The notes beneath the pieces are model-generated. The model saw only the letters and a list, made by a program, of their open reading frames with translations, searched no databases and was not told the DNA's origin. A program made the position numbers and the translations under genes. Of a stretch of DNA of 32,110 nucleotides, positions 1-3,931 are shown in pieces. The stretch spans positions 1-32,110 of the forward strand of contig JBHLOC010000054.1 in NCBI GenBank assembly GCA_048940925.1. The letters run 5' to 3'. Each line of letters begins with the position of its first letter. Position 1 is the first letter of the stretch. The stretch is from Promethearchaeota archaeon (GTDB lineage Archaea; Asgardarchaeota; Lokiarchaeia; Sigyniarchaeales; SOKP01).

Positions 1-430
1 CGGTGCCAGAGGGTACATTTGAATTTCCTGAGCAGGAACCCATAGATGATCAAGAACAAGAACCAGAATTTGAGGATGTACCAGAGTGGGTTCCCCCAGA
101 AGATTTAGCGGGAGACAATGATCCTGAAATTCCTGTTCCAGAAGGTATTTTTGAGCCTGCTGAATCAGAACAAGAACCAGAATTTGAAGATATTCCAGAA
201 TGGGTACCCTCTGAAAAATTAGCGGGTGATTATATACCTGAGATTCAAGTGCCTGAAGAAACGTTTGAACCTGTAAAACCAGAATCAGAACCAATTGATG
301 ATCAAGAACTTGATTTAGATTCTGAATATGTACCAGATTGGGTTCCTCCAGAAGAGTTAGCGGGAGATAATATCCCAGAAATTTTAGTTCCAGAAGATAC
401 TTTTGAATTTCTTCAACCTGAGTTAGAATC
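1..430 (+). repeat. Intragenic imperfect tandem repeats (38-46 aa units, P[ED]WVPxExLAGDxxPEIxVPExxFE)
   Basis: Three recognisable copies plus a partial copy at the window edge; 'ttagcggg' recurs at ~106, ~220 and ~357. Confidence 0.85.
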
Positions 431-3257
431 CATATATGACGAAGTACAGGAAGATTTAAATTCAACAGAAGAAAAATGTGAGCAGGAAAATCATAATGAT
501 ATTGTTCAAAAATATCCGCATGAACATTCTTCTGATGTTCTTCAAAAACAAAATGACATTTTAATTATGGGAAATAGTTTCTATTCCAGTCATAATGACA
601 CTGACTCTTTTAGAGATTTTAAACCAAAAGAAGAGGGAAAAGATCAACAAAAACCAGAAAGAAAATTGCCAATAAAGACAAGAAAAACTCAAACTAATAA
701 AAAAAAATCAGGATCTGATAGAAATACTATAAATAAGCAAAAATCAGGTCAAAGAACCATTCTTGTTTTAAAACCAGAAATAAAGGAGAAGAAAACAGAG
801 AATAAAAATAAAGCGAAGCCTATAAAAAATGAAAAAGACGAAAAAGAGACTCAAAAAGAAAATGAGGAGGAGGTCCCGCAAGAACTTAGAGAAAGATATA
901 AACGTGAGACAGGAAAGAGAGCTATATATGCAGGTAAAAATACTAAAGGTTTTGATGAATGGCAAAAAATACAAAAGAAATCAGAAACAGTAAAAGAAAA
1001 TAAGGAAAAAAGAGAGTTAAAAGAAGATTGGGAGCTATTATTAGAAAAATGGATAAATGAGGCGAATGAAAAAGTAATTTCTAAAGAGATTAAGAAAAAG
1101 CTTTTAGAAAAAATTAGAAAATATAGGCGCCTAAAGGATTTAAGTAGAAGGCTCTTCTACTTGTTAAGAAAAGAAAATCTAACAGAAAAAGAGACTGATG
1201 AAATTGAAACTTTGATTCAGCAAATTAAGAATATGGAGCCGATTCGAGAAGAGATTTTTAATAACTTAAGAGCTTTTAAAAAGTTCTATGAAGAAAATAT
1301 AAAATGGTTTGAGTATCGAATTCAAGCCGAGAGAGAGAAATTTACAAAATTCCTTGCTGAAAAATTAGAAAAACTTAAAGAAAGTAATGAGCTAAGGGAT
1401 AATTCTTCTAATTGGAAAGATCTATTGAAAAGGGCTTTAGGCTCATCAAAAGAAATTGACAGTTATGAAAAAATCTTAGTTGTCAATATCTTGAAAAAAT
1501 CTGATTTAACTGATAAAGATATCAAAAATTTATCGCTAATATTAAGCAAACTTGAGACGAAGGTATTGGTTGACATTTTTGGAGAAACCTTCTATTTACA
1601 AACACAAAATTATGTGAGATGGGGTTGGGACTTCTATAGAAATATAAAAATGGAGATCTTACGAGATTATTTTTCTTTAATAAAGGAAAAATCAAAATTA
1701 TTAGAAATTAATAAATCCGAGAAAATAATCAAGAATAAATTAGATTTGTTAAGAAGTATTGTTGAAATAATATCTAATAATGAAGATTTATCAAACTTAA
1801 ATGATAAAGATATTAAATTTCTATTTTTATTATCAGAATTAATAGGTATAATTCTTGGGGATGGAAATATCCGAAGATATAGTTTTAGAATAGATTTGAA
1901 TAAGGAAGATGAAATAGATTATGTAAATTATGTTAGTAATTTGATTTATCAAGTTTTAGGTAAATTTCCTCAAAAAAGGGACAGGAGAGGTATAGATGAA
2001 GAACATGAAGGGAAGGGCATTAGACTTATAATTAATGGTAAAGGAATAATAGACTTATTGACTAGAATTGGACTTAAAAGAGGGGATAAAATTAAGAATG
2101 CTGCAAAGGCTCCTGAATGGATTTTAGAAAATAAAATTTTAATCCCATATATATTAAAAGGCTTATTTGATACTGATGGAAATATTGATATACATAAAAA
2201 ATGGAGGGCACTCATTTTAAGATTTGTTAGTGGTTCTCAAATCCTTATAAAGAATTTCAAGTTAATGTGTGAAATATTAGATATAAAAACTTCGAATATT
2301 AGACCAATTAAAATAAAAAGTAAAAAATACAATAAGGTGTATGACGCTTGGGTTGTTTCAATAGGCTCTAAAGAAGCTATTAAAAAATTTATTGAAATTG
2401 TCGAACCTAAGAAATTCTTGTATCGCAAAAAGTTAATAGCAATGTTATTATTTATCCTTAAAAATTCTGAAAGAAAAGAGATAATAGATGAGGAGAAAAA
2501 AAAGGCATTCCCGAAGAAAAAAAAAATAAATCAATTTACTAAAGAATATATGGATTTCCTTCAGAAAATGTTTAAAAAATACAATTGGAACATTAATAAT
2601 GATCTTATAGAAAATCTTATAAAAGAAGCCTTGACTCTTAGAACACACAATTATAATATTTTAATAGGAGAAAAGTTAAAGGAGCTTTTTGAAATGCTTG
2701 GAACTGTTAAATTGGTTGTCGATTTTTTTATGAATAAAGGAGAAAAGTTATCTTTTCAGACTGTTAAAAACCATATAAAAAAATTATTGAGTAGAGAAAA
2801 ATATATAAACATATTCAGTAGTTCTAAATATAATCCGTTAGAAATTTTAGGAGATTCTTTCTATGATAAATGGGAAATAAACAACTCTAGAATTATTATC
2901 GATAAAGATAAAAGAAAAATCAATCAATTTAACTCAATATTAAGAATTAAAATAGCTCTTGAAATTTTTAATTTTCTAAAAAAAAATATTGATCCTTATT
3001 CAGTTAAAAATAATTTGATTATAAACCATTTAAAAGAATTAATTGAAAAATCTCCTTATTTTGGAAGATTAAATTATCTTTTGAATGATATTGATTATGC
3101 CCCAATAGTAAAAAATTATTTTATACGTCTAATAATTGTTGTAAAAGAAATAATAAAAAGTCCCAATGAGACAGCTTTCAGCATAGGTAAGAAATCAAAT
3201 CTGAAGGCAGATACAGTTCAAGATATAATGAATAAATTAAAAAAAAAGGTTGATTAA
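1..3257 (+). CDS. Large multidomain protein (5' partial): acidic Pro/Glu repeats, K/E-rich helical region, double-motif LAGLIDADG (DOD-type) endonuclease domain, possible C-terminal HTH
   Basis: Frame is open from the window edge. LAGLIDADG motifs LSELIGIILGDGNI (~1830-1870) and ILKGLFDTDGNI (~2150-2186), with the typical intervening 'GLKRGDK...PEWI' and the downstream 'LCEILDIKTS...W.V.I.SKEAIKKFIEIVEP'. No Hint splicing blocks recognised. Confidence 0.85.
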   Translation, partial: VPEGTFEFPEQEPIDDQEQEPEFEDVPEWVPPEDLAGDNDPEIPVPEGIFEPAESEQEPEFEDIPEWVPSEKLAGDYIPEIQVPEETFEPVKPESEPIDDQELDLDSEYVPDWVPPEELAGDNIPEILVPEDTFEFLQPELESIYDEVQEDLNSTEEKCEQENHNDIVQKYPHEHSSDVLQKQNDILIMGNSFYSSHNDTDSFRDFKPKEEGKDQQKPERKLPIKTRKTQTNKKKSGSDRNTINKQKSGQRTILVLKPEIKEKKTENKNKAKPIKNEKDEKETQKENEEEVPQELRERYKRETGKRAIYAGKNTKGFDEWQKIQKKSETVKENKEKRELKEDWELLLEKWINEANEKVISKEIKKKLLEKIRKYRRLKDLSRRLFYLLRKENLTEKETDEIETLIQQIKNMEPIREEIFNNLRAFKKFYEENIKWFEYRIQAEREKFTKFLAEKLEKLKESNELRDNSSNWKDLLKRALGSSKEIDSYEKILVVNILKKSDLTDKDIKNLSLILSKLETKVLVDIFGETFYLQTQNYVRWGWDFYRNIKMEILRDYFSLIKEKSKLLEINKSEKIIKNKLDLLRSIVEIISNNEDLSNLNDKDIKFLFLLSELIGIILGDGNIRRYSFRIDLNKEDEIDYVNYVSNLIYQVLGKFPQKRDRRGIDEEHEGKGIRLIINGKGIIDLLTRIGLKRGDKIKNAAKAPEWILENKILIPYILKGLFDTDGNIDIHKKWRALILRFVSGSQILIKNFKLMCEILDIKTSNIRPIKIKSKKYNKVYDAWVVSIGSKEAIKKFIEIVEPKKFLYRKKLIAMLLFILKNSERKEIIDEEKKKAFPKKKKINQFTKEYMDFLQKMFKKYNWNINNDLIENLIKEALTLRTHNYNILIGEKLKELFEMLGTVKLVVDFFMNKGEKLSFQTVKNHIKKLLSREKYINIFSSSKYNPLEILGDSFYDKWEINNSRIIIDKDKRKINQFNSILRIKIALEIFNFLKKNIDPYSVKNNLIINHLKELIEKSPYFGRLNYLLNDIDYAPIVKNYFIRLIIVVKEIIKSPNETAFSIGKKSNLKADTVQDIMNKLKKKVD

Positions 3258-3931
3258 ATTTTTAAAGGCTCACCGCCTTGTTCTAAAATTTCTACTTTAA
3301 TATTTGGATCTTTTTTCTCTAGTAACTCTTTGAATTTGCTGAGATCCTTACCCCAATTTTGCCTTTATATATGACCTGTATATAAATTATGCATTGGAAT
3401 TGCAATCTTAGGTTTTACATCAATAATAGAATCAGTAGATTCGTCAAAATCCATTGTATAGGTTCCTCCGCACGGCATCATTGCGACTGTAATGTGTTTG
3501 CTTGCTAAATCTTTCATTTCTGGAATTCTTTCAGTGTCACCAGCATGATATACACTTTTATCTCCAGATCTTACAATAATCCCTGCCCATTCATTACTTT
3601 TAGGGTGATTTGGTTTTTTTATATTATATGCGGGGATTAGTTCAATTGAAAGATCCTTATAATCGAAAATTTCGCCAAATTTTAAGGGTTTTCCGTTAAA
3701 TTTGCTTAAATCACTTGAGATACTTGCTGGACCTATAACCACAGTATCGTCTTTAAATATTTTTTTGATACTTCCTGCATCAAAATGATCACCATGAGAG
3801 TGTGTTGAAACCACAACATCAGCTTTCTCTTCTCCTTTTTTAATTTGGTAAGGATCTAAATAAATCACATTCCCACCCTCTGTCTTTATCTTGAATGCGG
3901 CATGGCCTAACCATGTAATTTCCATAGTCAT
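3254..3931 (-). CDS. MBL-fold metallo-hydrolase (UPF0173/Lactamase_B_3-like); exons 3931-3388 and 3357-3254, 215 aa if spliced
   Basis: Motifs WLGHAAF, DPY, THSHGDHFD, YHAGDT, GGTYTM, PMH. The reading frame continues past the TAA at 3365-3367 as NWGKDLSKFKELLEKKDPNIKVEILEQGGEPLKI*, which resembles the usual MBL C-terminal helix-strand. Its stop (3254-3256) overlaps the stop of the convergent gene. Confidence 0.88.
3358..3387 (-). other. Putative 30-nt bulge-helix-bulge intron in a protein-coding gene
   Basis: mRNA reads AUUCCAA-UGCA-UAA-UUUAUAUA-CAGGUCA-UAUAUAAA-GGCA-AAA-UUGGGGU: 7-bp outer helix, two 3-nt bulges, 4-position central helix (3 Watson-Crick pairs + A.G) and an 8-bp inner helix. 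Cutting after the 2nd nt of each bulge restores the frame and removes the stop. Confidence 0.82.

Follow-up and report, generated by a model that had tools for sequence, protein, structure and literature searches.

In cyanophages, the free-standing endonuclease F-CphI is encoded beside a group I intron of psbA that has no open reading frame (ORF) of its own, an arrangement known as collaborative homing. Bonocora and Shub have reportedly described further cases in T3/T7-like phages. The phage systems are summarised in PMC6279837 and PMC2790892. Here we analyse a 32,110-nt stretch (hereafter the window) of a lokiarchaeal genome (Promethearchaeota archaeon, assembly GCA_048940925.1, contig JBHLOC010000054.1), in which a free-standing LAGLIDADG endonuclease gene adjoins a metallo-β-lactamase (MBL)-fold hydrolase gene with an ORF-less intron of 30 nt. 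As in the phages, the presumed target is the intron-less junction, and intron and nuclease gene would move together. The two systems differ in that the intron here is of the protein-spliced bulge–helix–bulge (BHB) type (splicing being predicted), whereas the phage introns are self-splicing group I elements. The setting here is an archaeal chromosome and the enzyme a LAGLIDADG protein whose cleavage is predicted from sequence; unlike its phage counterparts, the cassette brings a replacement 3′ exon of its own, and an orphan exon is left behind.

The closest precedent comes from fungal mitochondrial genomes, in which free-standing LAGLIDADG and GIY-YIG ORFs accompany partial C-terminal duplications of cob and atp6 (PMC6279837), the endonuclease ORF lying between the host gene and its partial duplicate, as here. 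That precedent concerns an organelle with group I/II intron biology and no BHB intron at the duplication boundary, whereas ours concerns two loci on an Asgard chromosome. Archaeal rRNA BHB introns (I-DmoI, I-Tsp061I) and intein endonucleases (PI-PfuI, TliVMA) share the nuclease fold, and the former also associate a LAGLIDADG enzyme with a BHB-spliced intron. In contrast to these systems, the gene for the present enzyme lies downstream of the host gene on the other strand, and not within the intron; the protein has no Hint domain, and it bears an extra C-terminal domain of ~285 aa and a long N-terminal tail. For BHB introns in protein-coding genes the comparison is with cbf5 pre-mRNA, whose intron is, to our knowledge, linked to no nuclease gene. 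The cbf5 intron has been gained and lost among species of Crenarchaeota (PMC2738675); the MBL intron is likewise patchily distributed in a protein-coding gene, but it measures 30 nt, its host gene encodes an MBL-fold hydrolase of an Asgard archaeon, and its position is that of a cassette boundary. Our literature search found no paper tying BHB introns to free-standing endonucleases.

We propose, with a probability of roughly 0.55, that the 1084-aa ORF at the start of the window is a free-standing LAGLIDADG homing endonuclease that moves as a cassette in which the BHB intron is followed by a replacement MBL 3′ exon and then, on the other strand, by the nuclease gene. The architecture of the cassette, its insertion boundary, its foreign origin in this genome, its states of decay, and the intact fold and motifs of the nuclease are directly supported by what follows; we infer that the cut is this enzyme's work, where it falls, and that the intron confers immunity.

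A nuclease gene between two copies of an MBL 3′ exon

Contig C54 of genome G000 begins with the window (G, C and L numbers denote genomes, contigs and loci), and coordinates given without a contig or locus are window positions. The MBL gene lies on the minus strand. Its 5′ exon (3388–3931) encodes a metal-dependent hydrolase of the Lactamase_B_3 family (Pfam E 1.3e-27) and also matches NCBIfam PRK00685, with an E of 4.6e-27 that falls short of that model's cutoff. There follow the 30-nt micro-intron (3358–3387), with an in-frame TAA at 3365–3367, and a 3′ exon of 33 codons plus stop (3254–3357). We term this functional 3′ exon copy A, and reserve 'orphan' for a displaced second copy on the far side of the nuclease gene. 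The nuclease ORF (3–3257, plus strand) is open at the contig start and converges on the MBL gene. An earlier note on this DNA had claimed a double-motif LAGLIDADG gene ending at 3257, a stop overlapping that of the MBL gene and a short distance of 100 bp from stop to intron. We recover both motifs and the terminal TAA (3255–3257), the overlap within TTAA at 3254–3257 (the MBL TAA being 3256–3254 on the minus strand), and a separation from the nuclease stop of 99 nt plus the stop codon. It had further placed the intron inside the PMHN motif; the intron is indeed at this motif, but it lies directly after it, between the N and W codons. Absent from that reading was the rest of the anatomy: the cassette comes with a replacement for the 3′ exon, and beyond the cassette lies the displaced orphan.

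We surveyed 39 orthologous MBL loci from a 54-genome genus, the gene being present in 47 of the genomes. The nuclease gene is flanked by direct copies of the MBL 3′ exon in G000 and at six related loci. The orphan lies beyond the nuclease gene in L073, L075, L076, L078, L084, L144 and G000; in G068 the orphan is present and the nuclease gene gone. The G000 orphan (C37:30790–30882) adjoins a phosphorylase gene, and no orphan MBL exon was found in the other 38 genus loci, including loci with other insertions. All orphans start within the 3′ exon: at codon 1 in L078, at codons 2–4 in L144, L076, L084, L073 and G000, at about codon 7 in G068 and about codon 11 in L075. The insertion boundary of the nuclease cassette thus coincides with the intron site, the orphan starting 0–9 nt from it in most loci, as expected if the enzyme cuts the intron-less junction.

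Comparison with sister genomes reveals what is foreign in G000. The resident part is the 5′ exon, which groups with sisters G067 and G018 in trees and is ~88% identical in nucleotides to that of G018. The orphan and its downstream flank are collinear with the MBL 3′ end of G067 (0.90 identity, with homology from 9 nt after the intron site). Copy A, by comparison, is foreign relative to the G000 lineage, its identity being 0.79 with the G000 orphan and no more than 0.82 with any other allele, and its 3′ flank departs from G067 right after the stop. With the orphan G067-like and copy A foreign, it follows that DNA from elsewhere entered the G000 lineage at the junction and displaced its own exon. 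Neither G067 nor G018 has the intron or the nuclease gene, so the intron in G000 most likely came with the nuclease gene; on sequence comparison, a joint entry of intron, replacement exon and nuclease gene is the most likely course.

The same site has been occupied and vacated elsewhere. Presence and absence of the nuclease gene at this one fixed position separate G000 from G067 and G018, L073 from G041, and L075 from G022, with displacement of the resident exon seen in G000. G041 is what L073 would be without the stretch between the repeats. An older nuclease 3′ remnant is attached to the L073 orphan, such that a newer cassette stands in front of an older orphan-plus-remnant.

Several observations concern the surroundings of the insertion. 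The orphans of L076 (3213–3299) and L078 (527–619) differ by ~8% in nucleotides (7 of ~85 positions after the first 10), against a synonymous divergence of ~0.4–0.5 in the flanking genes; the orphan seems to be conserved, as expected of a homology arm, or of promoter overlap. In nine genomes (G003, G001, G021, G016, G004, G002, G023, G024 and G053) the MBL–phosphorylase spacer carries other, unrelated insertions, none with orphan exon copies, among them a 421-aa ORF family, a 964-aa histidine-kinase-like ORF and a 3-hydroxyacyl-CoA dehydrogenase gene. From the G000 orphan to the contig end (G000:C37:30883–37154; L081 2884–9155) there are six ORFs, one encoding a CDC48_N/CDC48_2 protein, one a 508-aa Zn-ribbon-like protein and four without a Pfam family. 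If the end of C37 abuts the start of C54, the G000 cassette has a length of 9.7 kb or more and holds cargo in addition to the nuclease gene.

The nuclease and the 30-nt intron

The sole Pfam match of the 1084-aa ORF is LAGLIDADG_3 (PF14528, E 1.5e-6), within a single-chain double LAGLIDADG domain (1800–2402) with motifs LIGIILGDGN (1839–1868) and LKGLFDTDGN (2154–2183). The two catalytic aspartates (GDG and TDG) are invariant in nine orthologues and 18 family members. The nine orthologues share 45–75% identity, all keep a C-terminal helical domain of ~285 aa, and the ratio of nonsynonymous to synonymous substitution (dN/dS) is 0.18–0.42. Judged from its sequence, the gene is intact and selectively maintained, and DNA cleavage by its product is predicted. 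An AlphaFold2 model of the nuclease domain (pLDDT 91) displays the complete double LAGLIDADG fold, with two αββαββα half-domains that make up a DNA saddle; it lies nearest to archaeal intein endonucleases, I-DmoI and I-Tsp061I. Foldseek matches include the TliVMA, PI-PfuI and PI-SceI intein endonucleases, I-DmoI and I-Tsp061I (E 5e-8 to 1e-5, probability 1.00, target-normalised TM up to 0.71). As modelled, the domain is thus an intact fold of the intein/I-DmoI endonuclease type. The endonuclease part of the NCBIfam RtcB intein model also matches it (E 3e-8). We rejected an intein assignment, since no Hint family was detected in Pfam or NCBIfam and only that endonuclease part of the RtcB model matches.

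The C-terminal domain (2403–3257) is all-helical, with many invariant alignment columns and an AlphaFold2 pLDDT of 89.7. It has no fold match in the PDB at E<0.001, and it perhaps provides extra DNA binding. The N-terminal part (3–1799) consists of acidic ~45-aa repeats followed by a Lys/Glu-rich, coiled-coil-like region, and matched no family in Pfam or NCBIfam searches. It is variable among orthologues: P0001–P0008 are 494–606 aa long and align only from about aa 490–600, and the segment aa 310–460 is common to paralogues in G022 and G010. Approximately four of the acidic repeats occupy window positions 3–520 (PE..FE.PE.EP...EFEDVPEWVPPE.LAGDN.PEI.VPE) and are missing from the orthologues; they probably caused the contig break at the start of C54.

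The MBL frame reads IPMHN, then LYTGHI-stop-RQN, then WGKDL through to PLKI-stop, and removal of 30 nt restores PMHN/WGK, as in the 26 intron-less orthologues of the genus (a slash marks the intron site). The intron-less junction of the G067 type reads ...CCAATGCACAATTGGGGGAAAGAT... An insert of exactly 30 nt at PMHN/W is present in 16 alleles (13 of the 39 genus loci and three metagenome loci), all with an in-frame stop in the insert and a conserved, in-frame downstream exon. From these sequences, the recurrence of such an insert at one MBL site is not attributable to chance.

The insert and its flanks can be modelled as a BHB motif on the minus strand. The first minimum-free-energy fold contained no BHB; we identified the motif manually and checked it afterwards by counting pairs. 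It comprises a 7-bp outer helix (3394–3400 with 3350–3356), a 4-bp central helix (3390–3393 with 3360–3363; U-A, G-C, C-G and A.G) separating two 3-nt bulges on opposite strands (3387–3389 and 3357–3359), and an inner hairpin (3379–3386 with 3364–3371). Cuts are predicted after RNA positions 28 and 58, taking out 30 nt and restoring the reading frame; the boundary can slide by ~3 nt because AAU is repeated at both ends. Applied to 15 alleles, the model has 90.7% of cells paired, versus 24–55% with partners slid. Seven of its pairs have changes on both sides, reached by none of 500 shuffles, and the A.G of the central helix becomes A-U in G068 and L075. In L077 (6812–6892, minus strand), again read by hand, the BHB is displaced by 1 nt, with a central helix of four standard pairs. 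The G000 genome encodes two EndA-type splicing endonucleases, at C58:74241 and C18:73532. By pairing and covariation the insert is a BHB intron, and it is predicted to be spliced.

Two further observations relate to this gene. By eye, the L077 intron resembles those of the genus, though the exons around it have diverged widely; L076 and L078, the sisters of L077, have no intron. In G012 (C48:37838–39042; also in G043 and G057) the whole MBL gene is tandemly duplicated, both copies being intron-less and 63–67% identical to that of G000.

Distribution, mechanism and alternatives

The metagenome scan for orthologues added the L084 junction (L082 and L085 duplicate loci that were already covered, and L083 stops short of the MBL gene); L144 came from the genome scan. 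Wherever the contig of an orthologue reaches the neighbouring gene, the nuclease gene is convergent with MBL and lies between MBL and the phosphorylase gene. It is intact alongside the intron in G000, L073, L075 and L077, and intact without an intron in L076 (PCHS/WDK), L078 (PMHN/WNE) and L084 (PMHN/WNK). Within the genus the intact gene is confined to G000, with six other intron-bearing alleles retaining the last 20–80 nuclease codons; a nuclease gene or 3′ remnant lies next to 7 of 13 intron-bearing alleles versus none of 26 intron-less ones. In nine independent contrasts, intron and nuclease (or its remnants) change the same way in ~6 and oppositely in ~0.5 (sign test, p ~0.06). The junctions of all three nuclease-positive intron-less alleles are unusual: L076 has AAT changed to TCG, L078 reads CAC AAC/TGG AAT GAG, and L084 has TGG AAT.

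In the mechanism we favour, the enzyme would cut naive MBL alleles at or beside the PMHN/WGK junction, and the break would be repaired from a cassette-bearing genome, with the 5′ exon and, beyond the cassette, the displaced orphan 3′ exon acting as homology arms. As these arms lie outside the cassette, the whole of it would be copied in and the host gene left intact. The intron, at the left edge of the cassette, would split the presumed recognition site and probably guard carriers from self-cleavage; being on that edge, it would necessarily be co-converted. Carriers without the intron may be protected by junction substitutions instead. Protection by the intron is plausible, given that intron-less carriers all have odd junction codons. 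Later, the nuclease gene would disappear while the intron stayed; internal deletion would leave 3′ remnants, the other route to loss being recombination between the two exon copies.

Several findings weigh against this proposal. The earlier note had suggested co-conversion of intron and nuclease gene, and a presence/absence comparison as its check. The linkage within the genus and the joint arrival in G000 agree with that suggestion, but the correlation is imperfect elsewhere: three of the seven loci with an intact nuclease (L076, L078 and L084) have an intron-less MBL gene, making the intron dispensable for carriers, and six intron-bearing alleles have no trace of a nuclease. In L075 it is copy A, not the orphan, that resembles sister G022. 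Nuclease divergence follows the same rank order as host MBL divergence, so that long vertical residence with losses fits as well as homing. Between G000 and L073, synonymous divergence (dS) is 0.76 for the nuclease, 1.6–2.0 for MBL and 0.68 for HAD, with strongly AT-biased third positions, and this extreme bias blurs the comparison as a gauge of recent nuclease transfer. If C54 and C37 abut, at least 6 kb of other ORFs separate the nuclease gene from the orphan in G000, and a larger element is possible. Finally, the last 99 nt of MBL are hyper-divergent even between intron-less sisters (22/99 for G067–G018, 21/99 for G008–G021), the 3′ exon being 2–5 times more divergent than the rest of the gene (22/99 versus 1–6/93). 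Recombination of the 3′ exon is accordingly not tied to the intron, since intron-less sisters are equally affected; for the same reason, we dropped an attempt to delimit co-conversion tracts by sliding-window divergence. The divergence of the 3′ exon suggests a hotspot of recombination where the MBL gene meets the variable MBL–phosphorylase spacer.

The alternative that survives best, which we nonetheless regard as doubtful, retains a homing cassette that targets the MBL junction and makes the intron a neutral passenger without a protective role, either as junction filler of an early insertion that by chance folds as a spliced BHB, or as an older intron marking a favoured break site. The intron's absence from three intact nuclease loci and from the host gene of the second-locus cassettes described below (G013 and G019) is in keeping with this, as is its persistence after nuclease loss in at least six alleles; the genus-like intron of L077, set between far-diverged exons, could be an old intron under structural constraint. 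Against neutrality stand the position of the intron exactly on the cassette boundary, its linkage to nuclease traces within the genus, and the odd junction codons of every nuclease-positive intron-less allele, which are expected if the intron's protection needs a substitute.

It is unlikely that the LAGLIDADG protein has lost, or never had, the role of agent and is instead a domesticated DNA-binding or regulatory protein akin to WhiA, or cargo of a larger element integrating at the MBL 3′ end, with the exon duplication produced by an integrase or by unequal recombination. The protein is unusual for a homing enzyme in its size (>1000 aa in G000), its conserved extra C-terminal domain and its long N-terminal tail; WhiA is among the fold matches, purifying selection has acted over a long divergence, paralogues occupy stable syntenic positions in different species, and the extra ORFs of G000 would suit a larger element. 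However, both catalytic aspartates are invariant, unlike in WhiA, and close sisters differ in whether they have the gene. In L075, L076 and L078, moreover, the nuclease gene is the only gene called between the exon copies, with no integrase gene called there, and the architecture is repeated with a paralogue at a second locus.

A purely vertical history, in which intron and nuclease gene are ancestral here and were lost many times independently with no homing or horizontal movement, would suit the parallel divergence of nuclease and host and the presence of the intron in basal branches of a 34-allele clade, but it is highly improbable: it is contradicted in G000 by the displaced resident exon matching G067 and the foreign functional exon, the MBL tree needs 9–12 intron changes (at least seven forced by well-supported branches), L073 holds two successive cassettes, and nuclease remnants never occur in intron-less alleles, so that the changes are allele swaps and not independent deletions.

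A second locus and a possible route for archaeal mini-introns

The same cassette architecture is found at a second host gene, here without an intron. In G013 (L050 5638–5760 and 8373–10058) and G019 (L047 5933–6049 and 8313–9998), paralogous LAGLIDADG genes are convergent with the gene for a 561-aa FAD-type protein, an orphan of whose last ~40 codons lies on the far side of the nuclease gene. At nine other paralogue loci, blastn found no flanking repeats; at a HAD-flanked locus (G000:C73 and G012), a protein search gave only a full paralogous gene and no orphan.

For the arrival of archaeal BHB introns at new sites, this locus offers a concrete and testable route at the level of DNA, suggesting how mini-introns and nuclease genes spread together. 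The stages of a life cycle can be seen in one genus: naive, invaded, with the nuclease decayed, with the nuclease lost and the intron kept, and re-invaded. Collaborative homing and cassettes with a 'replacement gene end', described from phages and fungal mitochondria, would thereby reach the chromosome of an Asgard archaeon. The locus also provides a BHB intron in a protein-coding gene other than cbf5, and its enzyme would be a new nuclease with a long target and a recognition site that can be predicted. Tentatively, and as a possibility only, LAGLIDADG cassettes with a replacement gene end may be a general delivery route of BHB mini-introns into archaeal protein-coding and tRNA genes, the intron arising or being retained at the edge of the cassette since it abolishes the target, and then outliving the nuclease. 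If true, such a route would explain part of the repeated and otherwise unexplained intron gains in Asgard and other archaea.

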